From NCBI GenBank assembly GCA_964016885.1, contig OZ024759.1, forward strand, positions 24,304,001-24,368,000: a stretch of DNA of 64,000 nt, read 5' to 3'. Within the stretch, counting starts at the first letter, position 1, and every line of letters starts with the position of its first letter. Positions 1 through 25,820 of the stretch are shown in pieces. The translations under genes and the position numbers were made by a program. This stretch comes from Eledone cirrhosa (lineage: Eukaryota). The notes under the pieces were generated by a model. That model did not search any database, was not told the DNA's origin, and saw only the letters and a list, made by a program, of their open reading frames with translations.

Positions 1-3000
1 CCTATATTCGTCTTTCCAAGTCATGTGCTTTCACACTTTGAGCCCAGTTTACTTCGATATATCTCAATATATCTCTATCTTCCTTTTAACGGAAAACACC
101 ATGCTGTCTGGCTATCTCTCTCCCAATCTACCTCATACTCTCTAGCACTTTTTTAGTAATCCCTTGCTTGTCTTTCAAGCAAGTTGGTCTTTACTCCTAT
201 GGACGTATAAACCTTTACACTATCTCATAACCATTCCTATATTCGTCTTTCCAAGTCATGTGCTTTCACACTTTGAGCCCAGTTTACTTCGATATATCCC
301 TATATATCTCTATTTTCCTTTTAACGGAAAACACCATGCTGTCTGGCTATCTCTCTCCCAATCTACCTCATACTCTCTACCTCTTTTTGAGTAATCCCTT
401 GCTTGTCTTTCAAGCAAGTTGGTCTTTACTCCTATGGACGTATATACCTTTACACTATCTCATAACCATTCCTATATTCGTCTTTCCAAAACATGTGCTT
501 TAACACTTTGACCCCAGTTTACTTCGATATATCCCTATATATCTCTATTTTCCTTTTAACGGAAAACACCATGCTGTCTGGCTCACTCTCTCCCTTAGCT
601 ACCTCATGCGATCTACCTCTTTTTGAGTAATCCCTTGCTTGTCTTTCAAGCAAGTTGGTCTTTACTCCTATGGACGTATAAACCTTTACACTATCTCATA
701 ACCATTCCCATATTCGTCTTTCCAAGTCATGTGCTTTAACACTTTGAGCCCAGTTTACTTCGATATATCTCTATATATCTCTATTTTCCTTTTAACGGAA
801 AACACCATGCTGTCTGGCTATCTCTCTCCCAATCTACCTCATACTCTCTACCTCTTTTTGAGTAATCCCTTGCTTGTCTTTCAAGCAAGTTGGTCTTTAC
901 TCCTATGGACGTATAAACCTTTACACTATCTCATAACCATTCCTATATTCGTCTTTCCAAGTCATGTGCTTTCACACTTTGAGCCCAGTTTACTTCGATA
1001 TATCCCTATATATCTCTATTTTCCTTTTAACGGAAAACACCATGCTGTCTGGCTCACTCTCTCCCTTAGCTACCTCATGCGATCTACCTCTTTTTGAGTA
1101 ATCCCTTGCTTGTCTTTCAAGCAAGTTGGTCTTTACTCCTATGGACGTATAAACCTTTACACTATCTCATAACCATTCCTATATTCGTCTTTCCAAGTCA
1201 TGTGCTTTCACACTTTGAGCCCAGTTTACTTCGATATATCTCTATATATCTCTATCTTCCTTTTAACGGAAAGCACCATGCTGTCTGGCTATCTCTCACC
1301 GAATCTACCTCATACTCTCTACCTCTTTTTGAGTAATCCCTTGCTTGTCTTTCAAGCAAGTTGGTCTTTACTCCTATGGACGTATAAACCTTTACACTAT
1401 CTCATAACCATTCCTATATTCGTCTTTCCAAAACATGTGCTTTAACACTTTGAGCCCAGTTTACTTCGATATATCCCTATATATCTCTATTTTCCTTTTA
1501 ACGGAAAACACCTTGCTGTCTGGCTATCTCTCTCCCAATCTACCTCATACTCTCTACCTCTTTTTGAGTAACCCTTGCTTGTCTTTCAAGCAAGTTGGTC
1601 TTTACTCCTATGGACGTATGAACCTTTACACTATCTCATAACCATTCCTATATTCGTCTTTCCAAAACATGTGCTTTAACACTTTGAGCCCAGTTTACTT
1701 CGATATATCCCTATATATCTCTATTTTCCTTTTAACGGAAAACACCATGCTGTCTGGCTCTCTCTCTCCCTTATCTACCTCATGCGATCTACCTCTTTTT
1801 GAGTAATCCCTTGCTTGTCTTTCAAGCAAGTTGGTCTTTACTCCCATGGACGTATAAACCTTTACACTATCTCATAACCATTCCCATATTCGTCTTTCCA
1901 AGTCATGTGCTTTAACACTTTGAGCCCGGTTTACTTCGATATATCTCTATATATCTCTATTTTCCTTTTAACGGAAAACACCATGCTGTCTGGCTATCTC
2001 TCTCCCAATCTACCTCATACTCTCTACCTCTTTTTGAGTAATCCCTTGCTTGTCTTTCAAGCAAGTTGGTCTTTACTCCTATGGACGTATAAACCTTTAC
2101 ACTATCTCATAACCATTCCTATATTCGTCTTTCCAAGTCATGTGCTTTCACACTTTGAGCCCAGTTTACTTCGATATATCTCTATATATCTCTATTTTCC
2201 TTTTAACGGAAAACACCATGCTGTCTGGCTATCTCTCTCCCAATCTACCTCATACTCTCTACCTCTTTTTGAGTAATCCCTTGCTTGTCTTTCAAGCAAG
2301 TTGGTCTTTACTCCTATGGACGTATAAACCTTTACACTATCTCATAACCATTCCTATATTCGTCTTTCCAAGTCATGTGCTTTCACACTTTGAGCCCAGT
2401 TTACTTCGATATATCTCTATATATCTCTATTTTCCTTTTAACGGAAAACACCATGCTGTCTGGCTATCTCTCACCCAATCTACCTCATACTCTCTACCTC
2501 TTTTTGAGTAATCCCTTGCTTGTCTTTCAAGCAAGTTGGTCTTTACTCCTATGGACGTATAAACCTTTACACTATCTCATAACCATTCCTATATTCGTCT
2601 TTCCAAGTCATGTGCTTTCACACTTTGAGCCCAGTTTACTTCGATATATCTCTATATAGCTCTATCTTCCTTTTAACGGAAAACACCATGCTGTCTGGCT
2701 ATCTCTCTCCCAATCTACCTCATACTCTCTAGCACTTTTTTAGTAATCCCTTGCTTGTCTTTCAAGCAAGTTGGTCTTTACTCCTATGGACGTATAAACC
2801 TTTACACTATCTCATAACCATTCCTATATTCATCTTTCCAAGTCATGTGCTTTCACATTTTGAGCCCAGTTTACTTCGATATATCCCTATATATCTCTAT
2901 TTTCCTTTTAACGGAAAACACCATGCTGTCTGGCTATCTCTCTCCCAATCTACCTCATACTCTCTACCTCTTTTTGAGTAATCCCTTGCTTGTCTTTCAA

Positions 3001-6000
3001 GCAAGTTGGTCTTTACTCCTATGGACGTATAAACCTTTACACTATCTCATAACCATTCCTATATTCGTCTTTCCAAGTCATGTGCTTTCACACTTTGAGC
3101 CCAGTTTACTTCGATATATCTCTATATATCTCTATTTTCCTTTTAACGGAAAACACCATGCTGTCTGGCTATCTCTCTCCCAATCTACCTCATACTCTCT
3201 ACCTCTTTTTGAGTAATCCCTTGCTTGTCTTTCAAGCAAGTTGGTCTTTACTCCTATGGACGTATAAACCTTTACACTATCTCATAACCATTCCTATATT
3301 CGTCTTTCCAAAACATGTGCTTTAACACTTTGAGCCCAGTTTACTTCGATATATCCCTATATATCTCTATTTTCCTTTTAACAGAAAACACCATGCTGTC
3401 TGGCTCACTCTCTCCCTTAGCTACCTCATGCGATCTACCTCTTTTTGAGTAATCCCTTGCTTGTCTTTCAAGCAAGTTGGTCTTTACTCCTATGGACGTA
3501 TAAACCTTTACACTATCTCATAACCATTCCTATATTCGTCTTTCCAAGTCATGTGCTTTCACACTTTGAGCCCAGTTTACTTCGATATATCTCTATATAT
3601 CTCTATCTTCCTTTTAACGGAAAGCACCATGCTGTCTGGCTATCTCTCACCGAATCTACCTCATACTCTCTACCTCTTTTTGAGTAATCCCTTGCTTGTC
3701 TTTCATGCAAGTTGGTCTTTACTCCTATGGACGTATATACCTTTACACTATCTCATAACCATTCCTATATTCGTCTTTCCAAAACATGTACTTTAACACT
3801 TTGAGCCCAGTTTACTTCGATATATCCCTATATATCTCTATTTTCCTTTTAACGGAAAACACCTTGCTGTCTGGCTATCTCTCTCCCAATCTACCTCATA
3901 CTCTCTACCTCTTTTTGAGTAACCCTTGCTTGTCTTTCAAGCAAGTTGGTCTTTACTCCTATGGACGTATAAACCTTTACACTATCTCATAACCATTCCT
4001 ATATTCATCTTTCCAAGTCATGTGCTTTCACATTTTGAGCCCAGTTTACTTCGATATATCCCTATATATCTCTATTTTCCTTTTAACGGAAAACACCATG
4101 CTGTCTGGCTATCTCTCTCCCAATCTACCTCATACTCTCTACCTCTTTTTGAGTAATCCCTTGCTTGTCTTTCAAGCAAGTTGGTCTTTACTCCTATGGA
4201 CGTATAAACCTTTACACTATCTCATAACCATTCCTATATTCGTCTTTCCAAGTCATGTGCTTTCACACTTTGAGCCCAGTTTACTTCGATATATCTCTAT
4301 ATATCTCTATTTTCCTTTTAACGGAAAACACCATGCTGTCTGGCTATCTCTCTCCCAATCTACCTCATACTCTCTACCTCTTTTTGAGTAATCCCTTGCT
4401 TGTCTTTCAAGCAAGTTGGTCTTTACTCCTATGGACGTATAAACCTTTACACTATCTCATAACCATTCCTATATTCGTCTTTCCAAAACATGTGCTTTAA
4501 CACTTTGAGCCCAGTTTACTTCGATATATCCCTATATATCTCTATTTTCCTTTTAACGGAAAACACCATGCTGTCTGGCTCACTCTCTCCCTTAGCTACC
4601 TCATGCGATCTACCTCTTTTTGAGTAATCCCTTGCTTGTCTTTCAAGCAAGCTGGTCTTTACTCCTATGGACGTATAAACCTTTACACTATCTCATAACC
4701 ATTCCTATATTCGTCTTTCCAAGTCATGTGCTTTCACACTTTGAGCCCAGTTTACTTCGATATATCTCTATATATCTCTATCTTCCTTTTAACGGAAAGC
4801 ACCATGCTGTCTGGCTATCTCTCACCGAATCTACCTCATACTCTCTACCTCTTTTTGAGTAATCCCTTGCTTGTCTTTCAAGCAAGTTGGTCTTTACTCC
4901 TATGGACGTATAAACCTTTACACTATCTCATAACCATTCCTATATTCGTCTTTCCAAGTCATGTGCTTTCACACTTTGAGCCCAGTTTACTTCGATATAT
5001 CCCTATATATCTCTATTTTCCTTTTAACGGAAAACACCATGCTGTCTGGCTATCTCTCTCCCAATCTACCTCATACTCTCTACCTCTTTTTGAGTAATCC
5101 CTTGCTTGTCTTTCAAGCAAGTTGGTCTTTACTCCTATGGACGTATATACCTTTACACTATCTCATAACCATTCCTATATTCGTCTTTCCAAAACATGTG
5201 CTTTAACACTTTGAGCCCAGTTTACTTCGATATATCCCTATATATCTCTATTTTCCTTTTAACGGAAAACACCTTGCTGTCTGGCTATCTCTCTCCCAAT
5301 CTACCTCATACTCTCTACCTCTTTTTGAGTAACCCTTGCTTGTCTTTCAAGCAAGTTGGTCTTTACTCCTATGGACGTATGAACCTTTACACTATCTCAT
5401 AACCATTCCTATATTCGTCTTTCCAAAACATGTGCTTTAACACTTTGAGCCCAGTTTACTTCGATATATCCCTATATATCTCTATTTTCCTTTTAACGGA
5501 AAACACCATGCTGTCTGGCTCTCTCTCTCCCTTATCTACCTCATGCGATCTACCTCTTTTTGAGTAATCCCTTGCTTGTCTTTCAAGCAAGTTGGTCTTT
5601 ACTCCCATGGACGTATAAACCTTTACACTATCTCATAACCATTCCCATATTCGTCTTTCCAAGTCATGTGCTTTAACACTTTGAGCCCGGTTTACTTCGA
5701 TATATCTCTATATATCTCTATTTTCCTTTTAACGGAAAACACCATGCTGTCTGGTTATCTCTCTCCCAATCTACCTCATACTCTCTACCTCTTTTTGAGT
5801 AATCCCTTGCTTGTCTTTCAAGCAAGTTGGTCTTTACTCCTATGGACGTATAAACCTTTACATTATCTCATAACCATTCCTATATTCGTCTTTCCAAGTC
5901 ATGTGCTTTCACACTTTGAGCCCAGTTTACTTCGATATATCTCTATATATCTCTATTTTCCTTTTAACGGAAAACACCATGCTGTCTGGCTATCTCTCTC

Positions 6001-9000
6001 CCAATCTACCTCATACTCTCTACCTCTTTTTGAGTAATCCCTTGCTTGTCTTTCAAGCAAGTTGGTCTTTACTCCTATGGACGTATAAACCTTTACACTA
6101 TCTCATAACCATTCCTATATTCGTCTTTCCAAGTCATGTGCTTTCACACTTTGAGCCCAGTTTACTTCGATATATCTCTATATAGCTCTATCTTCCTTTT
6201 AACGGAAAACACCATGCTGTCTGGCTATCTCTCACCCAATCTACCTCATACTCTCTACCTCTTTTTGAGTAATCCCTTGCTTGTCTTTCAAGCAAGTTGG
6301 TCTTTACTCCTATGGACGTATAAACCTTTACACTATCTCATAACCATTCCTATATTCGTCTTTCCAAGTCATGTGCTTTCACACTTTGAGCCCAGTTTAC
6401 TTCGATATATCTCTATATATCTCTATCTTCCTTTTAACGGAAAACACCATGCTGTCTGGCTATCTCTCTCCCAATCTATCTCATACTCTCTAGCACTTTT
6501 TTAGTAATCCCTTGCTTGTCTTTCAAGCAAGTTGGTCTTTACTACTATGGACGTATAAACCTTTACACTATCTCATAACCATTCCTATATTCATCTTTCC
6601 AAGTCATGTGCTTTCACATTTTGAGCCCAGTTTACTTCGATATATCCCTATATATCTCTATTTTCCTTTTAACGAAAAACACCATGCTGTCTGGCTATCT
6701 CTCTCCCAATCTACCTCATACTCTCTAGCTCTTTTTGAGTAATCCCTTGCTTGTCTTTCAAGCAAGTTGGTCTTTACTCCTATGGACGTATAAACCTTTA
6801 CACTATCTCATAACCATTCCTATATTCGTCTTTCCAAGTCATGTGCTTTCACACTTTGAGCCCAGTTTACTTCGATATATCCCTATATATCTCTATTTTC
6901 CTTTTAACGGAAAACACCATGCTGTCTGGCTATCTCTCTCCCAATCTACCTCATACTCTCTACCTCTTTTTGAGTAATCCCTTGCTTGTCTTTCAAGCAA
7001 GTTGGTCTTTACTCCTATGGACGTATATACCTTTACACTATCTCATAACCATTCCTATATTCGTCTTTCCAAAACATGTGCTTTAACACTTTGAGCCCAG
7101 TTTACTTCGATATATCCCTATATATCTCTATTTTCCTTTTAACGGAAAACACCATGCTGTCTGGCTCTCTCTCTCCCTTATCTACCTCATGCGATCTACC
7201 TCTTTTTGAGTAATCCCTTGCTTGTCTTTCAAGCAAGTTGGTCTTTACTCCCATGGACGTATAAACCTTTACACTATCTCATAACCATTCCCATATTCGT
7301 CTTTCCAAGTCCTGTGCTTTAACACTTTGAGCCCAGTTTACTTCGATATATCTCTATATATCTCTATTTTCCTTTTAACGGAAAACACCATGCTGTCTGG
7401 CTATCTCTCTCCCAATCTACCTCATACTCTCTACCTCTTTTTGAGTAATCCCTTGCTTGTCTTTCAAGCAAGTTGGTCTTTACTCCTATGGACGTATAAA
7501 CCTTTACACTATCTCATAACCATTCCTATATTCGTCTTTCCAAGTCATGTGCTTTCACACTTTGAGCCCAGTTTACTTCGATATATCTCTATATATCTCT
7601 ATTTTCCTTTTAACGGAAAACACCATGCTGTCTGGCTATCTCTCTCCCAATCTACCTCATACTCTCTACCTCTTTTTGAGTAATCCCTTGCTTGTCTTTC
7701 AAGCAAGTTGGTCTTTACTCCTATGGACGTATAAACCTTTACACTATCTCATAACCATTCCTATATTCGTCTTTCCAAGTCATGTGCTTTCACACTTTGA
7801 GCCCAGTTTACTTCGATATATCTCTATATAGCTCTATCTTCCTTTTAACGGAAAACACCATGCTATCTGGCTATCTCTCACCCAATCTACCTCATACTCT
7901 CTACCTCTTTTTGAGTAATCCCTTGCTTGTCTTTCAAGCAAGTTCGTCTTTACTCCTATGGACGTATAAGCCTTTACACTATCTCATAACCATTCTTATA
8001 TTTGTCTTTGCAAGTCATGTGCATTAACACTTTGAGCCCAGTTTACTTCGATATATCTCTATATATCTCTATTTTCCTTTTAACGGAAACCACCATGCTG
8101 TCTGGCTATCTCTCTCCCAATCTACCTCATACTCTCTACCTCTTTTTGAGTAATCCCTTGCTTGTCTTTCAAGCAAGTTGGTCTTTACTCCTATGGACGT
8201 ATAAACCTTTACACTATCTCATAACCATTCCTATATTCGTCTTTCCAAGTCATGTGCTTTCACACTTTGAGCCCCGTTTACTTCGATATATCTCTATATA
8301 TCTCTATCTTCCTTTTAACGGAAAACACCATGCTGTCTGGCTATCTCTCTCCCAATCTACCTCATACTCTCTAGCACTTTTTTAGTAATCCCTTGCTTGT
8401 CTTTCAAGCAATTTGGTCTTTACTCCTATGGACGTATAAACCTTTACACTATCTCATAACCATTCCTATATTCGTCTTTCCAAGTCATGTGCTTTCACAC
8501 TTTGAGCCCAGTTTACTTCGATATATCTCTATATATCTCTATTTTCCTTTTAACGGAAAACACCATGCTGTCTGGCTATCTCTCTCCCAATCTACCTCAT
8601 ACTCTCTACCTCTTTTTGAGTAATCCCTTGCTTGTCTTTCAAGCAAGTTGGTCTTTACTCCTATGGACGTATAAACCTTTACACTATCTCATAACCATTC
8701 CTATATTCGTCTTTCCAAGTCATGTGCTTTCACACTTTGAGCCCAGTTTACTTCGATATATCTCTATATAGCTCTATCTTCCTTTTAACGGAAAACACCA
8801 TTATGTCTGGCTATCTCTCACCCAATCTACCTCATACTCTCTACCTCTTTTTGAGTAATCCCTTGCTTGTGTTTCAAGCAAGTTGGTGTTTACTCCTATG
8901 GACGTATAAACCTTTACACTATCTCATAACCATTCCTATATTCGTCTTTCCAAGTCATGTGCTTTCACACTTTGAGCCCAGTTTACTTCGATATATCTCT

Positions 9001-12000
9001 ATATATCTCTATCTTCCTTTTAACGGAAAACACCATGCTGTCTGGCTATCTCTCTCCCAATCTACCTCATACTCTCTAGCACTTTTTTAGTAATCCCTTG
9101 CTTGTCTTTCAAGCAAGTTGGTCTTTACTCCTATGGACGTATAAACCTTTACACTATCTCATAACCATTCCTATATTCATCTTTCCAAGTCATGTGCTTT
9201 CACATTTTGAGCCCAGTTTACTTCGATATATCCCTATATATCTCTATTTTCCTTTTAACGAAAAACACCATGCTGTCTGGCTATCTCTCTCCCAATCCAC
9301 CTCATACTCTCTAGCTCTTTTTGAGTAATCCCTTGCTTGTCTTTCAAGCAAGTTGGTCTTTACTCCTATGGACGGATAAACCTTTACACTATCTCATAAC
9401 CATTCCTATATTCGTCTTTCCAAGTCATGTGCTTTCACACTTTGAGCCCAGTTTACTTCGATATATCCCTATATATCTCTATTTTCCTTTTAACGGAAAA
9501 CACCATGCTGTCTGGCTATCTCTCTCCCAATCTACCTCATACTCTCTACCTCTTTTTGAGTAATCCCTTGCTTGTCTTTCAAGCAAGTTGGTCTTTACTC
9601 CTATGGACGTATATACCTTTACACTATCTCATAACCATTCCTATATTCGTCTTTCCAAAACATGTGCTTTAACACTTTGAGCCCAGTTTACTTCGATATA
9701 TCCCTATATATCTCTATTTTCCTTTTAACGGAAAACACCATGCTGTCTGGCTCTCTCTCTCCCTTATCTACCTCATGCGATCTACCTCTTTTTGAGTAAT
9801 CCCTTGCTTGTCTTTCAAGCAAGTTGGTCTTTACTCCCATGGACGTATAAACCTTTACACTATCTCATAACCATTCCCATATTCGTCTTTCCAAGTCATG
9901 TGCTTTAACACTTTGAGCCCGGTTTACTTCGATATATCTCTATATATCTCTATTTTCCTTTTAACGGAAAACACCATGCTGCCTGGCTATCTCTCTCCCA
10001 ATCTACCTCATACTCTCTACCTCTTTTTGAGTAATCCCTTGCTTGTCTTTCAAGCAAGTTGGTCTTTACTCCTATGGACGTATAAACCTTTACACTATCT
10101 CATAACCATTCCTATATTCGTCTTTCCAAGTCATGTGCTTTCACACTTTGAGCCCAGTTTACTTCGATATATCTCTATATATCTCTATTTTCCTTTTAAC
10201 GGAAAACACCATGCTGTCTGGCTATCTCTCTCCCAATCTACCTCATACTCTCTACCTCTTTTTGAGTAATCCCTTGCTTGTCTTTCAAGCAAGTTGGTCT
10301 TTACTCCTATGGACGTATAAACCTTTACACTATCTCATAACCATTCCTATATTCGTCTTTCCAAGTCATGTGCTTTCACACTTTGAGCCCAGTTTACTTC
10401 GATATATCTCTATATAGCTCTATCTTCCTTTTAACGGAAAACACCATGCTGTCTGGCTATCTCTCACCCAATCTACCTCATACTCTCTACCTCTTTTTGA
10501 GTAATCCCTTGCTTGTCTTTCAAGCAAGTTGGTCTTTACTCCTATGGACGTATAAACCTTTACACTATCTCATAACCATTCCTATATTCGTCTTTCCAAG
10601 TCATGTGCTTTCACACTTTGAGCCCAGTTTACTTCGATATATCTCTATATATCTCTATCTTCCTTTTAACGGAAAACACCATGCTGTCTGGCTATCTCTC
10701 TCCCAATCTACCTCATACTCTCTAGCACTTTTTTAGTAATCCCTTGCTTGTCTTTCAAGCAAGTTGGTCTTTACTCCTATGGACGTATAAACCTTTACAC
10801 TATCTCATAACCATTCCTATATTCATCTTTCCAAGTCATGTGCTTTCACATTTTGAGCCCAGTTTACTTCGATATATCCCTATATATCTCTATTTTCCTT
10901 TTAACGAAAAACACCATGCTGTCTGGCTATCTCTCTCCCAATCTACCTCATACTCTCTAGCTCTTTTTGAGTAATCCCTTGCTTGTCTTTCAAGCAAGTT
11001 GGTCTTTACTCCTATGGACGTATAAACCTTTACACTATCTCATAACCATTCCTATATTCGTCTTTCCAAGTCATGTGCTTTCACACTTTGAGCCCAGTTT
11101 ACTTCGATATATCCCTATATATCTCTATTTTCCTTTTAACGGAAAACACCATGCTGTCTGGCTATCTCTCTCCCAATCTACCTCATACTCTCTACCTCTT
11201 TTTGAGTAATCCCTTGCTTGTCTTTCAAGCAAGTTGGTCTTTACTCCTATGGACGTATATACCTTTACACTATCTCATAACCATTCCTATATTCGTCTTT
11301 CCAAAACATGTGCTTTAACACTTTGAGCCCAGTTTACTTCGATATATCCCTATATATCTCTATTTTCCTTTTAACGGAAAACACCATGCTGTCTGGCTAT
11401 CTCTCTCCCAATCTACCTCATACTCTCTACCTCTTTTTGAGTAATCCCTTGCTTGTCTTTCAAGCAAGTTGGTCTTTACTCCCATGGACGTATAAACCTT
11501 TACACTATCTCATAACCATTCCTATATTCGTCTTTCCAAGTCATGTGCTTTCACACTTTGAGCCCAGTTTACTTCGATATATCTCTATATATCTCTATCT
11601 TCTTTTTAACGGAAAACACCATGCTGTCTGGCTATCTCTCTCCCAATCTACCTCATACTCTCTAGCACTTTTTTAGTAATCCCTTGCTTGTCTTTCAAGC
11701 AAGTTGGTCTTTACTCCTATGGACGTATAAACCTTTACACTATCTCATAACCATTCCTATATTCGTCTTTCCAAGTCATGTGCTTTCACACTTTGAGCCC
11801 AGTTTACTTCGATATATCTCTATATATCTCTATTTTCCTTTTAACGGAAAACACCATGCTGTCTGGCTATCTCTCTCCCAATCTACCTCATACTCTCTAC
11901 CTCTTTTTGAGTAATCCCTTGCTTGTCTTTCAAGCAAGTTGGTCTTTACTCCTATGGACGTATAAACCTTTACACTATCTCATAAACATTCCTATATTCG

Positions 12001-15000
12001 TCTTTCCAAGTCATGTGCTTTCACACTTTGAGCCCAGTTTACTTCGATATATCTCTATATATCTCTATTTTCCTTTTAACGGAAAACACCATGCTGTCTG
12101 GCTATCTCTCTCCCAATCTACCTCATACTCTCTACCTCTTTTTGACTAATCCCTTGCTTGTCTTTCAAGCAAGTTGGTCTTTACTCCTATGGACGTATAA
12201 ACCTTTACACTATCTCATAACCATTCCTATATTCGTCTTTCCAAGTCATGTGCTTTCACACTTTGAGCCCAGTTTACTTCGATATATCTCTATATATCTC
12301 TATTTTCCTTTTAACGGAAAACACCATGCTGTCTGGCTATCTCTCTCCCAATCTACCTCATACTCTCTACCTCTTTTTGAGTAATCCCTTGCTTGTCTTT
12401 CAAGCAAGTTGGTCTTTACTCCTATGGACGTATAAACCTTTACACTATCTCATAACCATTCCTATATTCGTCTTTCCAAGTCATGTGCTTTCACACTTTG
12501 AGCCCAGTTTACTTCGATATATCTCTATATATCTCTATCTTCCTTTTAACGGAAAACACCATGCTGTCTGGCTCTCTCTCTCCCTTATCTACCTCATGCG
12601 ATCTACCTCTTTTTGAGTAATCCCTTGCTTGTCTTTCAAGCAAGTTGGTCTTTACTCCTATGGACGTATATACCTTTACACTATCTCATAACCATTCCTA
12701 TATTCGTCTTTCCAAAACATGTGCTTTAACACTTTGAGCCCAGTTTACTTCGATATATCCCTATATATCTCTATTTTCCTTTTAACGGAAAACACCATGC
12801 TGTCTGGCTCTCTCTCTCCCTTATCTACCTCATGCGATCTACCTCTTTTTGAGTAATCCCTTGCTTGTCTTTCAAGCAAGTTGGTCTTTACTCCCATGGA
12901 CGTATAAACCTTTACACTATCTCATAACCATTCCCATATTCGTCTTTCCAAGTCATGTGCTTTAACACTTTGAGCCCGGTTTACTTCGATATATCTCTAT
13001 ATATCTCTATTTTCCTTTTAACGGAAAACACCATGCTGTCTGGCTATCTCTCTCCCAATCTACCTCATACTCTCTACCTCTTTTTGAGTAATCCCTTGCT
13101 TGTCTTTCAAGCAAGTTGGTCTTTACTCCTATGGACGTATAAACCTTTACACTATCTCATAACCATTCCTATATTCGTCTTTCCAAGTCATGTGCTTTCA
13201 CACTTTGAGCCCAGTTTACTTCGATATATCTCTATATATCTCTATCTTCTTTTTAACGGAAAACACCATGCTGTCTGGCTATCTCTCTCCCAATCTACCT
13301 CATACTCTCTAGCACTTTTTTAGTAATCCCTTGCTTGTCTTTCAAGCAAGTTGGTCTTTACTCCTATGGACGTATAAACCTTTACACTATCTCATAACCA
13401 TTCCTATATTCGTCTTTCCAAGTCATGTGCTTTCACACTTTGAGCCCAGTTTACTTCGATATATCTCTATATATCTCTATTTTCCTTTTAACGGAAAACA
13501 CCATGCTGTCTGGCTATCTCTCTCCCAATCTACCTCATACTCTCTACCTCTTTTTGAGTAATCCCTTGCTTGTCTTTCAAGCAAGTTGGTCTTTACTCCT
13601 ATGGACGTATAAACCTTTACACTATCTCATAACCATTCCTATATTCGTCTTTCCTAGTCATGTGCTTTCACACTTTGAGCCCAGTTTACTTCGATATATC
13701 TCTATATATCTCTATTTTCCTTTTAACGGAAAACACCATGCTGTCTGGCTATCTCTCTCCCAATCTACCTCATACTCTCTACCTCTTTTTGAGTAATCCC
13801 TTGCTTGTCTTTCAAGCAAGTTGGTCTTTACTCCTATGGACGTATAAACCTTTACACTATCTCATAACCATTCCTATATTCGTCTTTCCAAGTCATGTGC
13901 TTTCACACTTTGAGCCCAGTTTACTTCGATATATCTCTATATATCTCTATCTTCCTTTTAACGGAAAACACCATGCTGTCTGGCTATCTCTCTCCCAATC
14001 TACCTCATACTCTCTACCTCTTTTTGAGTAATCCCTTGCTTGTCTTTCAAGCAAGTTGGTCTTTACTCCTATGGACGTATAAACCTTTACACTATCTCAT
14101 AACCATTCCTATATTCGTCTTTCCAAGTCATGTGCTTTCACACTTTGAGCCCAGTTTACTTCGATATATCTCTATATAGCTCTATCTTCCTTTTAACGGA
14201 AAACACCATGCTGTCTGGCTATCTCTCACCCAATCTACCTCATACTCTCTACCTCTTTTTGAGTAATCCCTTGCTTGTCTTTCAAGCAAGTTGGTCTTTA
14301 CTCCTATGGACGTATAAACCTTTACACTATCTCATAACCATTCCTATATTCGTCTTTCCAAGTCATGTGCTTTAACACTTTGAGCCCAGTTTATTTCGAT
14401 ATATCTCTATATATCTCTATCTTCTTTTTAACGGAAAACACCATGCTGTCTGGCTATCTCTCTCCCAATCTACCTCATACTCTCTAGCACTTTTTTAGTA
14501 ATCCCTTGCTTGTCTTTCAAGCAAGTTGGTCTTTACTCCTATGGACGTATAAACCTTTACACTATCTCATAACCATTCCTATATTCGTCTTTCCAAGTCA
14601 TGTGCTTTCACACTTTGAGCCCAGTTTACTTCGATATATCTCTATATATCTCTATTTTCCTTTTAACGGAAAACACCATGCTGTCTGGCTATCTCTCTCC
14701 CAATCTACCTCATACTCTCTACCTCTTTTTGAGTAATCCCTTGCTTGTCTTTCAAGCAAGTTGGTCTTTACTCCTATGGACGTATAAACCTTTACACTAT
14801 CTCATAACCATTCCTATATTCGTCTTTCCAAGTCATGTGCTTTCACACTTTGAGCCCAGTTTACTTCGATATATCTCTATATATCTCTATTTTCCTTTTA
14901 ACGGAAAACACCATGCTGTCTGGCTATCTCTCTCCCAATCTACCTCATACTCTCTACCTCTTTTTGACTAATCCCTTGCTTGTCTTTCAAGCAAGTTGGT

Positions 15001-16560
15001 CTTTACTCCTATGGACGTATAAACCTTTACACTATCTCATATCCATTCCTATATTCGTCTTTCCAAGTCATGTGCTTTCACACTTTGAGCCCAGTTTACT
15101 TCGATATATCTCTATATATCTCTATTTTCCTTTTAACGGAAAACACCATGCTGTCTGGCTATCTCTCTCCCAATCTACCTCATACTCTCTACCTCTTTTT
15201 GAGTAATCCCTTGCTTGTCTTTCAAGTAAGTTGGTCTTTACTCCTATGGACGTATAAACCTTTACACTATCTCATAACCATTCCTATATTCGTCTTTCCA
15301 AGTCATGTGCTTTCACCTTTTGAGCCCAGTTTACTTCGATATATCTCTATATATCTCTATTTTCCTTTTAACGGAAAACACCATGCTGTCTGGCTATCTC
15401 TCTCCCAATCTACCTCATACTCTCTACCTCTTTTTGAGTAATCCCTTGCTTGTCTTTCAAGCAAGTTGGTCTTTACTCCTATGGACGTATAAACCTTTAC
15501 ACTATCTCATAACCATTCCTATATTCGTCTTTCCTAGTCATGTGCTTTCACACTTTGAGCCCAGTTTACTTCGATATATCTCTATATATCTCTATTTTCC
15601 TTTTAACGGAAAACACCATGCTGTCTGGCTATCTCTCTCCCAATCTACCTCATACTCTCTACCTCTTTTTGAGTAATCCCTTGCTTGTCTTTCAAGCAAG
15701 TTGTTCTTTACTCCTATGGACGTATAAACCTTTGCACTATCTCATAACCATTCCTATATTCGTCTTTCCAAGTCATGTGCTTTCACACTTTGAGCCCAGT
15801 TTACTTCGATATATCTCTATATAGCTCTATCTTCCTTTTAACGGAAAACACCATGCTGTCTGGCTATCTCTCACCCAATCTATCTCATACTCTCTACCTC
15901 TTTTTGAGTAATCCCTTGCTTGTCTTTCAAGCAAGTTGGTCTTTACTCCTATGGACGTATAAACCTTTACACTATCTCATAACCATTCCTATATTCGTCT
16001 TTCCAAGTCATGTGCTTTCACACTTTGAGCCCAGTTTACTTCGATATATCTCTATATATCTCTATCTTCCTTTTAACGGAAAACACCATGCTGTCTGGCT
16101 ATCTCTCTCCCAATCTACCTCATACTCTCTAGCACTTTTTTAGTAATCCCTTGCTTGTCTTTCAAGCAAGTTGGTCTTTACTCCTATGGACGTATAAACC
16201 TTTACACTATCTCATAACCATTCCTATATTCATCTTTCCAAGTCATGTGCTTTCACATTTTGAGCCCAGTTTACTTCGATATATCCCTATATATCTCTAT
16301 TTTCCTCTTAACGAAAAACACCATGCTGTCTGGCTATCTCTCTCCCAATCTACCTCATACTCTCTAGCTCTTTTTGAGTAATCCCTTGCTTGTCTTTCAA
16401 GCAAGTTGGTCTTTACTCCTATGGACGTATAAACCTTTACACTATCTCATAACCATTCCTATATTCGTCTTTCCAAGTCATGTGCTTTAACACCTTGAGC
16501 CCAGTTTACTTCGATATATCCCTATATATCTCTATACTCCTTTTAACGGAAAACACCATG
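1..16560. repeat. 235-bp satellite DNA array, ~70 near-identical monomers (234/236-bp variants), runs off the window start
   Basis: Monomer gagtaatcccttgcttgtctttcaagcaag...ctctctacctcttttt recurs every 235 bp (ORF starts 1905, 2140, 2375 etc.). Confidence 0.99.
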
Positions 16561-17360
<800 letters not shown>

Positions 17361-17767: not shown

Positions 17768-17816
<49 letters not shown>

Positions 17817-17819
<3 letters not shown>

Positions 17820-18654
17820 ATATATTTAGAAACACACAGATATACATGAATGCATCCACATCCAACCGTGAGTTAATGGTGCCAACCTTACCGATGTTGC
17901 TCGATGAATGACTGGGACAGACCAATCCGGTTGAATTAGACTGAACCAGTATCAGAGCTAAAAGTATATTATGAAGAGCAGTTTAGGAGCAGTCCAGGAG
18001 CAGTTTAGGTATGATACATTTTATTACTAATTATATCTAAATGTTTCTTCTCTCTTCATAATGTACTTTTAGCTCTGATACTGGTTCAGTCTAATTCAAC
18101 CGGATTGGTCTGTCCCAGTCATTCATAGAGCAACATCGCTAAGGTTGGCACCATTAACTCACGGTTGGATGTGGATGCATTCATGTATATGTGTGTGTCC
18201 GCATGTATCTGTGTGTTTCTAAATATATTGTTCATAACTCCCTCTGGTCGAGTAATCTTTGAAGTGTGGTGACTGCTGGAAATCTGCCATTACTCATACT
18301 TCTCGCCCCCTTCACCACCTCTTCTACGGCTTAGATATAAATACCCCCTCCACCTCCGTGGTATTTTCTTCGGGGTTATAAGTGGCTTAGCTCTGTTTCT
18401 TGACCGTTGTATCACGTGACTATCTCCCCTCCGCCTTTTGGGATTCTTTCTCACATCATATAGACGCGTTCTTGAAGCTAGTAAAAGGAGGTATCGACTT
18501 GATAAGTCGGCAGACCTCGCAAAAACTCTATATCCTTATGATGTATTGTTTTTGTTTATGCCACGAAACTACGTAGTCGAGGAATCTAGGAGCAGTTTAG
18601 GTATGATACATTTTATTACTAATTATATCTAAATGTTTCTTCTCTCTTCATAAT

Positions 18655-18659
<5 letters not shown>
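17817..18659 (+). mobile_element. Solo PLE pseudo-LTR-like element: 5' inverted arm, 592-bp unit with 72-bp terminal direct repeat, degenerate HHR
   Basis: IR 17817-17978 vs 18052-18231; direct repeat 17996-18067 = 18588-18659; GAAA-ctacgtag-TC at ~18565-18578; (TA)n on both sides. Confidence 0.65.
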
Positions 18660-18703
<44 letters not shown>

Positions 18704-18705
<2 letters not shown>

Positions 18706-18928
18706 GTTGCGTGGAGGGGGAAGCGGCGGGGGAAGTGTGGAAGTAAAGACGGAAGCCGAGGGGGATAAGGTGGAGGCGGAGGCAGTGGCTGAGGAAATGG
18801 ATGTGGCTGGAGTGCCGGGTTTTAGCGAAGAGAAGGTAGGAGAGTTGAAGGGCAGAGGGGAGATAGCAGGGTGGGGAAAGTTTGAGGCTAGTGTGTAGTT
18901 GGTGGAGAAAGGATCTCAGGCTGGGCAT
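18704..18928 (-). pseudogene. N-terminal fragment of a PLE ORF (tail of the tandem pLTR), truncated by (TA)n
   Basis: MPSLRSFLHQLH...KTRHSSHIHFLSHCLRLHLIPLGFRLYFH resembles the H-x2-FL-x2-C-x4-hhP-x-G N-terminal motif of Neptune-type PLE ORFs; contiguous with the left palindrome arm. Confidence 0.6.
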
Positions 18929-19444
18929 GGTGGGCGTTGGGTGAAAGCAGGGGGAGGGATGAGAAAGCAGGTGTGTGAAGCGGGGTGGGGTTGAACGAAA
19001 GAGTGAGTGCGAAGGATAGGCAGAGACGGGGAAGGGAAAATGAAACAGAAAAACGTAAGGAGGGGGGAGTATACACAGGAAAAATAAAGACAAAAAATCA
19101 TAAAGGTAAAAACACAGGCAATCGTGGACGAAAAATCATAGAAATAAAATCGTAAAAACACAGGCAAAAAATCGTATACAGAAATAAATAAGTACAGTAA
19201 AAAAAATCAAACAAAGGTAATGCGTGGAAGGAAAATAAAAGTGTGGGAAGGTGTGTGGAAAGTTCAGAGAGTGGTCACGGCGGATTAGATCGGGGTTAAG
19301 CCGGTAGTCAGGTTATATTGCAAAGGTATGGAAGCCGTGTGAGCGTGTATTGTATAATGAACAATTGAACGGGAACAAAACAGAGAGGCAGTACAAACAA
19401 ATGTTTATTAATTTCACGCTCTTGAGAGTGGAGTGGGGGTGGGG

Positions 19445-19478
19445 AACGACGTTTCGGGCATGAGCCCTTCTTCAGGTG
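19445..19478 (-). ncRNA. Minimal type I hammerhead ribozyme motif
   Basis: Reverse complement: cac CTGAAGA a gggc tcat gccc GAAA cg TC gtt; stem I only ~2 bp. Confidence 0.7.
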
Positions 19479-21160
19479 AAAAGTGTGTGGGAAGAGAGTT
19501 CAAATGGTGTGTAGGGGAGTGGTGGAGAGACATATAGCAAAAAGGGGGTGAGAGGAAACGGTGCAAATGAAATTAAAAATAAAGGCATGATCAAAATAAA
19601 ATTAAAATGGGGTAAAACAGGTGGTGGAAGAGTGTGGGGCGTGTAGGGGTGGTGGCGGGTGGAGTGGGGAGAGGGAGACGGGGTGTCCGAGCGGGGAGGG
19701 CTGAAGGTGGTGTGTGTATGTAGGTGTACGTGTGTGTGTGTGTGTGTACGTGAAAGCAAGGGTTGGGGGAAGAACAGGGTTGCATGTTCAGGAAGAGGTG
19801 TGTGTGGGGTGGGGTGTAGGTCGGATTGTGTGTGCGTGTGTGGATATAGGGGTGGGGAGAGAGGATTCTGGAGGCTGAATGTGTAAATATGTGGTGGTAC
19901 GCTTGTGTGTGTGTGGTGTTTATGCGTGTTGTGGGTGTAGGTGGCGTGTGGGGAAAAAATTTTTTTTGGGGTGTGTGTGTGGGTGAGTCATAAAGGTAAT
20001 TCCGTAAGAAGGTGTGGTGGAATGCTTAGTAATATCCTTGGATGTGGTGGATTCCGGGATCAAGGTTCACATACGTGTAATCCGTGAAGAGATTGGTCGG
20101 AAGAGGGGAGATGTGGGGTGCGCGCGCAACAGGAAGTGGTCAGAGGGTCAAGGCAGGAGGAGTGTTGTGTGTCTGTGTGTGCGGGGAGGTGGTCAGAGGG
20201 CATAGCAGCAGTAGGGTAGAATGGTAAGTGAAGGTGTGTCAGTGTGTGCGGTGGACAGGGGAGAGGATGGGTAGGTGTGAAAGTTGGAGTGTGGAGGGGT
20301 GTGTGTGTATTAATAGAGGTGTTAGTGGGATGAGTGAGTGTTTGAGAAAGGGTGTGGGTGGAGCGGGGAGAGAAGGGTGTGGGGCCGATAGAGGGAGTGT
20401 AGTGTACTGGTGTGTATGTTTGGTGAAGGGGGTGTTAGTGGGTGTTAGTATACAGGAGGTGGAGAAAGGGTTGAATGCGGGTGTGAGTGGGGGTCAGTGG
20501 TGGTAGGGTGTGTAGAGTGGGAGGTGTAAGAGGGTGTGTGTGTACGTGTGCGTAGGGTTGGGGGTGTTAGTGATGTTAGTTGCGTGTAGGGTGGGTGGTG
20601 TAAGTGGGTGTGGGTGTTCGTGTGCTTGGGGTCAGGGGGTGTTAGTGATGTTAGTTGCGGGGTGGTGGGGTGGATGTGTGGGGGTGAGGGTTAGTGGTGG
20701 TAGTAGGGTGTGTGTTTAGTGTGAGCGCGTGTATATATGTGCCGGTGGGTGTGTGCGTGTGATAAGGAGGGCGGAGGAGAAGAAGGGAGGGATGTTAGTA
20801 TGTTAGTTGGGGAAGGGTGGTCGGATGTGGGGTGGAGGTGTTAGTATTGTTAGTTGTGGGGTGGGCGGTGAAAAGGACGGGTGTGTTAGTGGTGTTAGTG
20901 GGGGATATGTGTGGGGGGAGGGGGGCGGTAGAAGGCTAAAGGAATAAGGGTGGGGAGTTCAGGCCGGGGGGAGTGTGGGTCTGTAAGATGAAGATGGTTC
21001 GTTGTTCAACTCTTAGGAGATTGGCGGGTGTTCCGTGGCATTGGAGTAGGCCATAGACTGTGTGATGGCGTGCGGAATGTCCAGGAGCACCAAAGTGGTG
21101 GGCGATGGGGGAACTACCACCGAGACGAATATCCCGGAGGTGCTCAGTAAATCTGTCCGC

Positions 21161-21403
21161 CAGACTGGACGTCGCCTGGCGGACAGATTTACTGAGCACC
21201 TCCGGGATATTCGTCTCGGTGGTAGTTCCCCCATCGCCCACCACTTTGGTGCCCCTGGACATTCCGCACGCCATCACACAGTCTATGGCCTACTCCAATG
21301 CCACGGAACACCCGCCAATCTCCTAAGAGTTGAACAACGAACCATCTTCATCTTACAGACCCACACTCCCCCCGGCCTGAACTCCCCACCCTTATTCCTT
21401 TAG
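21161..21403 (+). pseudogene. C-terminal part of a PLE GIY-YIG endonuclease (mirror copy 20936-21163 on minus strand)
   Basis: QTGRRLADRFTEHLRDIR...PIAHHF...H...EQRTIFILQTHTPPGLN matches the YIG[EQ]TxRxLxxRxxEH ... E..I..L.T..P.GLN pattern of PLE endonucleases. Confidence 0.88.
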
Positions 21404-22860
21404 CCTTCTACCGCCCCCTCCCCCCACACATATCCCCCACTAACACCACTAACACACCCGTCCTTTTCACCGCCCACCCCACAACTAACAATACTAACAC
21501 CTCCACCCCACATCCGACCACCCTTCCCCAACTAACATACTAACATCCCTCCCTTCTTCTCCTCCCCCTCCTTATCACACGCACACACCCACCGGCACAT
21601 ATATACACGCGCTCACACTAAACACACACCCTACTACCACCACGAACCCTCACCCCCACACATCCACCCCACCACCCCGCAACTAACATCACTAACACCC
21701 CCTGACCCCAAGCACACGAACACCCACACCCACTTACACCACCCACCCTACACGCAACTAACATCACTAACACCCCCAACCCTACGCACACGTACACACA
21801 CACCCTCTTACACCTCCCACTCTACACACCCTACCACCACTGACCCCCACTCACACCCGCATTCAACCCTTTCTCCACCTCCTGTATACTAACACCCACT
21901 AACACCGCCTTCACCAAACACACACACCAGTACTCTACACTCCCTCCATCGGCCCCCACACCCTTCTCTCCCCGCTCCACCCACACCCTTTCTCAAACAC
22001 TCACTCATCCCACTAACACCTCTATTAATACACACACACCCCCTCCACACTCCAACCTTCACACCTACCCATCCTCTCCCCTGTCCACCGCACACACTGA
22101 CACACCTTCACTTACCATTCTACCCTACTGCTGCTATGCCCTCTGACCACCTCCCCGCACACACAGACACACAACACTCCTCCTGCCTTGACCCTCTGAC
22201 CACTTCCTGTTGCGCGCGCACCCCACATCTCCCCTCTTCCGACCAATCTCTTCACGGATTACACGTATGTGAACCTTGATCCCGGAATCCACCACATCCA
22301 AGGATATTACTAAGCATTCCACCACATCTTCTTGCGGAATTACCTTTATGACTCACCCACACACACACCCCAAAAAATTTTTTTTTCCCACATGCCACCT
22401 ACACCCACAACACGCATAAACACCACACACACACGTGCGTACACCCAGATATTTACACATTCAGCCTCCGGAATCCTCTCCCCCCACCCCTCTATCCAAA
22501 CACGCACACACACTCCAACCTACACCCCACCCCACACACACCTCTTCCTGAACATGCAACCCCGTTCTTCCCCCAACCCTTGCTTTCACGTACACACACA
22601 CACACACACGTACACCTACACACACACACCTCCTTCAGCCCTCCCCGCTCGGACACCCCGTCTCCCTCTCCCCACTCCACCCGCCACCACCCCTACACGC
22701 CCTACACCCTTCCACCACCTGTTTTACCCCATTTTAATTTTATTTTGATCATGCCTTTATTTTTAATTTCATTTGCACCGTTTCCTCTCACCCCCTTTTT
22801 GCTATATGTCTCTCCACTACTCCCCTACACACCCTTTGAACTCACTTCCCACACACTTTT

Positions 22861-22894
22861 CACCTGAAGAAGGGCTTATGCCCGAAACGTCGTT
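22861..22894 (+). ncRNA. Minimal type I hammerhead ribozyme motif
   Basis: cac CTGAAGA a gggc ttat gccc GAAA cg TC gtt; AATAAA ~35 nt downstream. Confidence 0.7.
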
Positions 22895-22986
22895 CCCCAC
22901 CACCACCCCACTCTCAAGAGCGTGAAATTAATAAACATTTGTTTGTACTGCCTCTCTGTTTTGTTCCCGTTCAATTTTTCATTATA

Positions 22987-23200
22987 TATATATATATATA
23001 TTATATATGCATGTATGTATATATATTCTTTTATCATTATGTATATATATATTTATATATATGTATGGATACATATATTTTTATATGTATGTATGTATAT
23101 CTATATTTATATATATATATGTATATATATTCATATATATGTATGGATACATATATTTATATATATGTATGTGTGTATGTTTATATATGCAGATATGTGA

Positions 23201-23256
<56 letters not shown>

Positions 23257-23277
23257 TTATATATATTTATTTATATT

Positions 23278-23330
<53 letters not shown>

Positions 23331-23421
23331 ATATTTATATATATATGTATATATACATATATTTATATATATATATGTGTATATATATTTATTTATATAT
23401 ATATATGTATGCATATATATG
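22987..23421. repeat. (TA)n-rich microsatellite
   Basis: Direct reading. Confidence 0.95.
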
Positions 23422-25447
23422 TAACGCTACTGCGGGGTTGTTTTACACCCCGTGGATAGAACAACCCTCAACACCAGGAACACGTTTTGTAGATGTTCCC
23501 GTCTTCCCTCTGTTTATCTTCCTCAACCTACAGGTTTATATACAGAGAAGGCCCATTCACCCGGGCCACTTTCGCCACATGCACCCACCTTTCAGCCAAT
23601 TTACTGGGGTGTAGCACCTCTCTCTCCACTCCCACCTTCCTTCTGAACTGGTACTTAAAGAAGGGGATGAGTTGTTGTCCGGAGAGAAAGGTGCTTGCCC
23701 TCAGTCCTTTTAACCTCGTCGAACTATATTACCTCTTTTGCCATAGCCACCAGACAGAGGAAGACCGCCTCTCCTTCATTCTTAAATGAAGGCGGAGGGG
23801 TGATCCTCACGATGGACTCGGCGAACAACTGGATGAGTCCCACACGTGACAGTAGCTGTTCGACATAATTCCACAGGTCGCTCACCCCTGGGCACTGAAC
23901 AATTGCGTGCAGAACGTTTTCAATGTCCTGCTCGCATCTTGGACAGGTCCTTTTCGCAGGATCTCTGCCAGTGCGTCCGTGCCTGTAGATTTTGTCTCGA
24001 ACTGATAGAGCTCCTCGGTAGCACTTCCAGGTCAGAGACCTCAGGAAGTTATCCATAGGCCCTGGACGGAAAGTCCTCCCGAACAGACTGGTCGGCTTGT
24101 CTTCCTCGATGCCTAGAGTTTCCCCGAGAACGTCGTCGCACTTATCCTCCACTAATCCCCTATAGAATGTCGAAGTGGAGTCTCCGCTGATTGCCGTTTC
24201 CGCTTGGGAGAGTGCTGTGAGCGCCTGAAGTCACATGAGGTGCCCGGCGCCCATTTTCGGTCTTCGCTTGACCCATAACTGCAGCTCTGTTAGTGAGACG
24301 AGTTGTGGAAGAGCTCGTCTCACAAAGAACAGCCACACAGGTTCGCCGGTCAGGAATACCTGGAGATGGCATAGCCTCAGCGCGTGTTTGCGCGTCATCA
24401 GCAACGGCATGCGCAGGCCTCTTTTAGAAGGGTGTTGACAGCAGATGGATCTCCTCACCAATGGACCCTGTTTCTTCCAGAGGAACTTGAAGAGTAGGCG
24501 TTCCATTTTGGTGAGGTATTCGCGGGGACAAGGCACGACTGTCAAGCGGTAATAGATGACGGACGCTATGTAAGTGTTCGCCACCTCCGCTCGACCTTTC
24601 CAGGAGAGTTTGCACTCAGCCCACTTCTGGGTGAGTGCAAACACCTTCGCCCTGACCTCGTTCCAGTTCTTGTCCACCTGGAGGTCTGGACCAAACCAGA
24701 CTCCGAGCAATTTCACTGGTTCTTCCGTCCAGCGTCCAACGACACTGTCGGAAGGCATGGGTTTGCCTCTCCATGTGCCGAGTTGCAAACCGACAGACTT
24801 GTTTGGGTTTAGTCTTGCTCCTCTCAATGTTTCGTATTCCTGTAATAGGTTGCCGATTACCCTGATGTCCGAGGTTTTAGACACCATTACGGTTAGGTCG
24901 TCGGCTAGGCCTGGTTCGATCGGGAACCCTGCAACTTCCGCAGTAATGGATCGAGAGTCAGTACATACAGAATGGAGGAGAGAGGGCACCCCTGGCGGAT
25001 GGAATGCATGATTTGGAATTGCTCCGATAGGTAGCCATTCACCTTGACTGCCGAACAGATGCTGGTGTGCATGGCAGCGATCCAGCCTCTGAAGACGGAA
25101 TCGAAGACGGCCGCCTTGAGAACCGCTTCCAAGTATTGATGGTCGACAATATCAAATGCCTTAGACTGATCTAAATTGATCAGGGCCCCACCGAAGCCAG
25201 GTTTACACCCTACCACCCTCTCTATGGTGTATCGCATGAGGTGGAGGTTGTCGTGTATGGACCTGGTCGGGATTGCACACGTTTGCGCTTCCCCTACCAG
25301 GTTCTCGACGACAAGCGCCAGCCTCACTGCTAACACCTTGGACAAAATCTTTAACTCTGTGTTGAACAGAGTTATGGGCCTGAAATTGCTTATCTGCTCC
25401 CCCTTGTTCTCATCTTTCCTGATCAACGTTACTACGCCTCTGCCTAC
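23422..25447 (-). mobile_element. 5'-truncated, frameshifted Tx1/L1-clade LINE ORF2 (RT plus C-terminal Cys/His motif) with probable 3' UTR
   Basis: NFRPITLFNTELKILSK, QTCAIPTRSIHDNL, LDQSKAFD, RQGCPLS; YADD broken by an apparent 1-nt deletion (gccta-gccgacgac ~24905); KLLGVWF; CPRC..E..LHAIVQC; split over ORFs 24905-25426, 24231-24989, 23724-24152. Confidence 0.9.
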
Positions 25448-25820
25448 AGAACTGATAAATAAACAGATGCGGAGTGGTGATTGATTGTATTTAGTCGATT
25501 GATGGACCCTGTAGTTATTTGTTTTTATTTTTTAAATCTTTATCTTTCGCCCCCCCACCCCCTCCTCCTCCCCACCGCCACCATTCCTACTTTTCCCATC
25601 CCTCCTCCCCCTCACTATTACCAACATTCTTCCCTCCCTCCACTTCTGTCGTAAAGACAAATGCATTCATAAGCACTAATTAGACGCTCAGTCATGCTCT
25701 AATGGCGTCTAGATTTATTGATGCTTTTTCCACGTTCCTCCTCCTCTTCCCTACTCTCATTCACCATTTCCTCTTCATTTTTTTTTTAACACTCATCTCC
25801 CGTTTCATCTATCTCTCTGT

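Follow-up and report, generated by a model that had tools for sequence, protein, structure and literature searches.

A head-to-head pair of Penelope-like element copies in Eledone cirrhosa, with a one-sided tail and a step in arm identity

How does a retroelement come to lie in a genome as a near-complete mirror image of itself? The question is raised by a 64,000-nucleotide stretch of Eledone cirrhosa DNA (GenBank assembly GCA_964016885.1, contig OZ024759.1, positions 24,304,001 to 24,368,000, forward strand; this whole stretch is called the window below), in which two 5'-truncated copies of a dead Penelope-like element (PLE) stand head-to-head. A first-pass annotation, made from the letters of the window, had described a 3.6-kb palindrome with two 1.8-kb arms and a 12-nt spacer, and had explained it by a single cDNA that snapped back on itself, both 3' ends being joined to (TA)n. 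Cruciforms or long dsRNA, possibly acted on by ADAR or small-RNA pathways, were also conjectured. Arm-to-arm alignment bears out the structure: the arms, 1811 bp each, align with 1773 matches, 36 substitutions and 4 gap columns, i.e., they are 97.8% alike. This is far above chance, and the palindrome is confirmed as real; its exact junction sequence occurs once in the 3.0-Gb assembly, and the structure has no coding capacity and no function for the host that would be apparent from the data. The explanation fares differently. The left copy carries a 648-bp tail that is absent from the right arm, and the arms do not diverge uniformly along their length; together these observations contradict a simple snap-back. 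The account that we favour, at about even chances, is a single insertion in which both ends of a cut (TA)n tract acted as primers and a fold-back sealed the centre, with later arm-to-arm conversion of the inner 1.15 kb.

The nature of the element is read most easily from its other copies, for which the arm sequence has about 2,000-2,900 candidate places in the assembly. In 28 other loci of the family, the stretch at the axis runs upstream into non-mirrored sequence, mostly VYGLRCTECSATYVG-QTGRRLADRF, so the motif lost in the window is YVG, the equivalent of YIG, and the fold lies directly behind it. A full family unit of 4739 bp (locus L092, frameshifted) encodes reverse transcriptase (RT), followed by a CX4CxxC linker and then by GIY-YIG. 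Its own Pfam matches are weak (RT, E=0.014; GIY-YIG, PF01541, E=0.0068, below cut-off). Among 774 candidates, 82 proteins with lengths of 610-1130 aa are matched by its RT region, and most of them carry PF00078, PF28514 or PF26215; PF01541 is also present in 18 of the 82. The continuation across the axis, the domain order and the proteins matched by the RT region uphold the earlier assignment to a PLE GIY-YIG gene. Family copies have two cysteines between GIY and YIG (VYGLRCTECSATYVG), a feature of PLEs with a C-terminal endonuclease (C-terminal EN+ PLEs), and histidines follow in the open reading frame (ORF) of the window, giving a CCHH motif in which the exact histidines are assigned without alignment to references. 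The linker, CSRPRCNTC in the L092 frame, stands upstream of GIY-YIG and fits the CX2-5CxxC pattern described for that position in Neptune/Nematis-type PLEs (PMC8557442). Judged by these motifs, the family is a C-terminal EN+ PLE with Neptune/Nematis-type features. Membership in Naiad/Chlamys was rejected, as the endonuclease is C-terminal and not N-terminal of RT, and so was membership in the Hydra clade, given the PADKGG motif (DKG kept, not DKT) and the two internal cysteines. Most of the 29 loci that hold the 5' region of the family contain an upstream partial copy, i.e., a pseudo-long terminal repeat (pLTR) tandem, with variable 5' truncation throughout. Hammerhead-like core boxes are visible in both arms, with a stem II that folds in prediction and no Rfam hammerhead match at E<=1. 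The same region (L091/L092, G000:C2:338242506-338253665) carries a local duplication of 5816 bp (99-100% alike), which comprises the upstream partial copy and the 5' part of a near full-length unit.

The two outer ends of the palindrome are of different kinds. The right arm stops at the usual 3' end of the family: 26 of the 28 loci picked by an internal 3' probe (L063-L090) align there and pass straight into a TA repeat, and the remaining two deviate by a few letters. The left copy extends 648 bp past its arm, as native element sequence, up to (TA)23, which it meets where the element itself reads TAT. The tail is native, for all 29 other loci picked with the tail stretch continue into the ORF; the best other match to it is 94%, and its end at the tract occurs once in the assembly. 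The joining of both 3' ends to (TA)n is thus correct for the right arm, at 22986, and for the left one only when the end is placed at 18705, since the 19352 side continues for 648 bp. The tail excludes both a simple fold-back chimera of reads and a plain single-cDNA snap-back, as neither could add native sequence that is absent from the right arm.

Arm divergence was compared with that among 45 family copies spanning the whole arm (45 of 52 loci tried; 990 pairs). The differences between the arms are distributed non-uniformly (Kolmogorov-Smirnov (KS) p=6e-7). In the outer zone, 732-1811 bp from the axis, the arms differ at 26 of 731 clean sites, or 3.6%, and are thereby as distant as ordinary family members (median 3.57%; 484 of the 990 pairs as close). 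In the inner zone, 1-731 bp from the axis, they differ at 2 of 623 clean sites, against a family median of 2.8% and with none of the 990 pairs as close; the cut at 731 was chosen after the data had been seen, and a cut-free rank test gives p=1.3e-4. The best change point lies 1150 bp from the axis and is reached by none of 300 uniform shuffles. Inside it are 10 rare alleles shared by the arms and 7 arm-specific substitutions; outside it these numbers are 1 and 29. Six of the 10 shared rare alleles are seen in none of the 45 other copies. Each arm is 0.96-2.3% from the family majority, compared with copy medians of 1.3-1.8%, and the tail is 2.0% from it, compared with 1.2%; in this respect arms and tail resemble ordinary copies.

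The shared alleles appear to be private to this locus. Exact 21-mers carrying shared or arm-specific alleles (three allele patterns, searched assembly-wide) were found only at the palindrome, a two-allele 21-mer occurs genome-wide only in the two arms, and the same exact search found no donor copy for the arm alleles in the assembly. There is no young pair among the 45 copies either, the closest differing by 0.8% in the inner and 1.8% in the outer zone. The simplest reading of these alignments is that the shared inner mutations likely arose at the locus and spread from arm to arm by copying. A cluster of 41 bp contains four of the 7 inner differences (scan p about 0.005), and a 7.6-kb palindrome 0.5 Mb away (L252:1596-9201, G000:C20:24848001-24858000), with 3.8-kb arms of mixed DNA centred on a short tandem repeat, shows alternating identical and diverged patches; the two observations suggest that conversion between arms is patchy. 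The latter palindrome was rejected as a second PLE case, being made of non-PLE DNA. No GC bias is evident in the small sample of 10 shared changes, 1 being towards and 4 away from G/C.

The centre of the palindrome is of fold-back type. The spacer with its flanking CAG and CTG is native sense sequence of the right copy, in which these triplets stand 12 nt apart, and the 3-bp inverted match is part of an imperfect inverted match of 7 out of 9. Snap-back priming, as proposed in the first-pass annotation, survives as a description of the centre and fails as the sole origin of the structure, which has the 648-bp tail and the diverged outer arms. Several other properties of the axis were considered. 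It is not a recurrent fold site or a propagated palindrome, as the junction pattern occurs once and no other scored candidate spans the axis; it is not a microRNA, the Rfam matches being under gathering scores and reflecting hairpin shape; and a truncation hotspot is not claimed, for the copies that start within about 20 nt of it (L063, L072, L130) are too few and partly selected. Elsewhere in the family, one copy is interrupted by 88 bp of downstream sequence of the element itself, in inverted orientation (L118:7163-7250), which suggests a template switch during reverse transcription.

The insertion that we favour would proceed as follows. The enzyme of the element would cut (TA)n, and one DNA end would prime cDNA at the usual start site of the family (22986). 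The other end, pairing through TAT (18705), would prime on a tandem RNA at a point about 665 nt inside its next unit, and the second cDNA would be copied back across the unit junction. The first cDNA would then stop in the GIY-YIG region and fold back on the 3-bp CAG/CTG match, and the extended strand would anneal to the complementary second cDNA, giving the symmetric centre. From then on the arms have aged like other copies, and inner mutations would have been copied between them in patches, long after insertion.

A neighbour of the palindrome offers a parallel. Directly to its left, at 17801-18659, lies a non-coding element with 593-bp tandem units (unit 18067-18659 plus an upstream partial copy), which has an inverted piece at 17832-17978, with fragments beyond, and shares the (TA)23 tract with the palindrome. 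This TA-targeting element, with 2189 candidate places and two fixed ends (about unit positions 591 and 163-168), is probably non-autonomous and moved by a PLE. An abutting inverted piece is found in 13 of its 29 distinct places, that in the window included. The outer end of the inverted piece is at one of the two fixed sites in 11 of the 13, the inner ends are asymmetric in 12, and one is a perfect fold-back. Such a pattern would follow from cDNA priming at both target ends and a subsequent joining of the inner ends, with fold-back as a minority outcome.

A number of observations weigh against the two-ended insertion followed by repeated conversion. The family does not use the left priming site recurrently, and none of the 29 loci picked by the 3' end has a tail of at least 45 bp, shorter ones being outside what was listed. 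With TA repeats at both ends and no empty allele at hand, a target-site duplication is illegible, and the origin of the pair in one event is thus not demonstrated. Energy prediction for the native single strand favours another fold over the junction stem (z -1.9 and -0.5), so that a pre-formed hairpin is not supported. The boundary between the zones was, as said, post hoc, and one sharp step at 1150 suits a single event as well as it suits repeated conversion. Pooled over 54 other, mostly short palindromes, the bias between inner and outer differences is not significant (168 vs 191, p=0.25), so homogenisation is not general. Finally, no record bridging the axis was found among family-bearing Logan contigs (one study) and one RAD-seq (restriction site-associated DNA sequencing) run, which are fragmentary or reduced, may represent other individuals and are uninformative either way. 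No RNA record was listed as containing the sequence, which is no evidence on expression.

The sharpness of the step is one argument for a rather unlikely alternative, in which a head-to-head insertion, by then old and asymmetric from the start, suffered a break close to the middle. A single-stranded end would have folded back at CAG/CTG, taken about 1.15 kb of the right arm as template and found homology in the left arm to anneal to. The core would then be a one-off product of DNA repair and not of reverse transcriptase. Exact symmetry seldom arises at insertion (1 of 13 in the 593-bp element) and would be explained by such a repair, which has precedents in yeast foldback inversions that arise through short-loop hairpins and are stabilised by homology, e.g., by single-strand annealing (PMC7467729), and in inverted duplications from 2-bp self-annealing at L1 breaks (10.1101/2024.12.14.628481). 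This alternative does not sit well with the clustering of four of the seven later differences in 41 bp (p about 0.005), nor with the one shared rare allele outside the core, although the latter, in a CA run at arm position 1415, is weak. Another alternative, which we consider unlikely, starts from a textbook unit, made up of a tailed inverted fold-back copy, then a partial copy in direct orientation, then a full unit of 4.7 kb. The full unit may have been lost by recombination between two 1.8-kb direct repeats, as in the formation of solo LTRs, leaving the right arm a hybrid. One cDNA would then suffice for the symmetry of the centre, for the tail on one side and for the usual end on the right; the layout of the unit is published (PMC8557442, PMC3846280), and among the 29 loci with the 5' region, 5 have an upstream partial copy of 1.1-1.5 kb or more. 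An inverted 5' copy is absent from all 29, however, and the collapse alone would leave the inner arms no younger than the outer ones, so that conversion or a decayed donor would still be required.

The step may also date from the insertion itself. Quite an unlikely proposal, in our estimate, is that it is the fossil of an unresolved step in PLE transposition, the inverted copy being a hybrid of a first-cDNA fold-back and a second cDNA made from the other target end on tandem RNA. If so, long PLE palindromes would generally be mosaics, with an identical core and outer parts of another source, and a genome-wide reading of them would map how inverted copies form. Another reading, very unlikely, takes the insertion to be young and templated in trans by a tandem donor that was old and decayed; the first cDNA, by folding back, would have given the inner left arm, and the upstream unit of the donor the outer one, so that the identity step would record the insertion intermediate directly. 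It predicts a single identity step, with shared rare alleles confined to the part inside it, which comes near to the observed pattern; against it stand the absence of a donor from the assembly, where the three exact allele patterns occur only at the palindrome and the tail finds nothing better than its 94% match, and the lack of a young pair among the sampled copies. An assembly artefact, be it a whole fold-back chimera or polishing that homogenised the inner arms, is highly improbable. No spanning read was seen in the data examined, homopolymer indels between the arms could be sequencing errors, and the diverged zone adjoins the flanks that would anchor reads. A chimera, however, would mirror the flanks and be near-identical throughout, whereas the mirror ends at the 3' end of the element, with 648 bp of extra native sequence on the left and 36 substitutions between the arms; mis-mapped family reads would pull bases to the family majority and not to alleles seen in none of 45 copies; and the patches of the nearby L252 palindrome do not follow distance from the flanks. 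The model of the first-pass annotation, one cDNA snapped back and copied to its end, is barely credible as a whole. The short spacer in native orientation and the 3-bp inverted match agree with it, and self-priming has been proposed for PLE junction palindromes (PMC3846280), but it cannot yield the tail unless the right arm lost its own exactly at the usual end, and it predicts uniform divergence, which is rejected by the KS test, the outer arms being as different as unrelated copies.

The same annotation considered a mirror image of this length unusual for PLEs. Within the family this is so: an abutting mirror pair is absent from the 45 other 10-kb loci holding family sequence (46 fetched, one empty), 4 of which have some inverted piece, and from 57 plus 29 shorter loci, partly the same places; these counts refer to sampled loci, biased towards the copies closest to the query, and are not genome-wide. 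As a class, palindromes are common in this genome, and the layout has been published. In an unselected 600 kb beside the window, a scan for arms of 120 bp or longer, separated by no more than 150 bp, gave 29 palindromes, a count that misses some, as every 10-kb piece was scanned alone; 25 of them adjoin TA runs, and 2 have arms of at least 400 bp. Young palindromes, with arm differences of 0-0.3%, are formed by hammerhead-bearing tandem units of 310 bp and about 474 bp at L119:5255-7044, L130:1351-2927 and L217:3937-4925, the first of which sits inside a copy of the PLE family studied here.

Features of the palindrome and its borders (positions in the window)
Feature	Position	Strand	Remark
(TA)23 target tract, left end	18659..18704		Common to palindrome and small neighbouring element
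One-sided 648-bp tail: 5' untranslated region and first ~74 codons (ATG at 18928) of next tandem unit	18705..19352	-	
Left arm: 5'-truncated PLE copy, C-terminal part of GIY-YIG gene and 3' region/pLTR	19353..21163	-	
Hammerhead-like core, left arm (CTGAAGA-stem II-GAAAC-GTC)	19448..19475	-	By inspection
Homogenised core, inner ~1150 bp per arm	20013..22326		7 arm-specific substitutions, 10 shared rare alleles
Axis: CAG 21161-63, 12-nt spacer 21164-75, CTG 21176-78	21161..21178	+	Encodes QTGRRL
GIY-YIG endonuclease coding remnant downstream of YVG, 80 codons	21161..21403	+	
Right arm: 5'-truncated PLE copy, usual 3' end of family (CATTATA then TA repeat)	21176..22986	+	
Hammerhead-like core, right arm	22864..22891	+	By inspection
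Degenerate (TA)n tract, right end	22983..23420		

The remainder of the window includes a 235-bp satellite at 1-16623 (70.7 copies, 96% matches, strong strand skew) and, at 23724-25531 on the minus strand, a decayed long interspersed nuclear element with RT and zf-RVT remnants. A Pfam search of 28 open frames elsewhere in the window, which was not exon-aware, gave no match, and a search of PDB gave nothing meaningful.

The locus is an ordinary structure, with a layout already published for PLEs, and with one instructive detail. How PLEs make inverted copies is described as still open (PMC8557442), and to that question the palindrome makes a contribution of modest importance: it is a clean case in which the tail speaks against plain snap-back and for the use of both target ends. 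It is equally a case in which arm identity misdates the insertion; such insertions cannot be dated in this way, when the arm difference of a single palindrome is 0.3% in the core and 3.6% beyond it.

Among known systems, the closest are the inverted units of C-terminal EN+ PLEs. Inverted 5'-truncated copies, one-sided tails and (TA)n targeting have been described by Craig et al. 2021 (PMC8557442), and junction palindromes of head-to-head copies were interpreted as self-priming by Arkhipova et al. 2013 (PMC3846280). As in the units described there, an inverted 5'-truncated copy abuts a 5' end through a junction palindrome, with a one-sided tail, a (TA)n target and a putative hammerhead-like core near the 3' end, and the 15-nt offset between the inner ends of our palindrome resembles the 15-bp overlap described for Pen2a_Av. 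The canonical inverted unit, as given in these accounts, has a tail of 30-40 bp at a recurrent start site, whereas here it is 648 bp long, with an end that no other place in the assembly shares; in addition, the right side lacks both a full unit and a direct pLTR tandem, and the arms show an identity step. Our literature search, in which subscription journals were mostly outside reach and supplements were not included, found the architecture described and did not find conversion within PLE palindromes.

The idea of priming from both ends finds a basis in the Poseidon element PAc of Anolis, for which Frangieh et al. 2024 (PMC11167929) describe cleavage and extension of both strands at AT-rich DNA in vitro, as well as internal initiation on tandem pLTR-ORF RNA. 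PAc is reported there to use two fixed start sites 30-40 nt apart, whereas one recurrent end is seen in the family studied here, and Poseidon, as described, is without the CX2-5CxxC linker that this family has. The proposed repair of the centre is likened to foldback inversions (PMC7467729, 10.1101/2024.12.14.628481), described as short-loop hairpins primed by 2-3 bp and resolved by homology; in our case it is the element itself that is mirrored, up to its 3' end, and no host flank is duplicated. Arm-to-arm gene conversion is established for the human Y palindrome P6 (Hallast et al. 2013, PMC3723533), which is alike in having derived alleles on both arms and tracts on the kilobase scale. P6 is of the large, gene-bearing type, as presented in that work, whereas the Eledone palindrome is a 3.6-kb transposon relic with a 12-nt spacer, in which the inner part only is homogenised.

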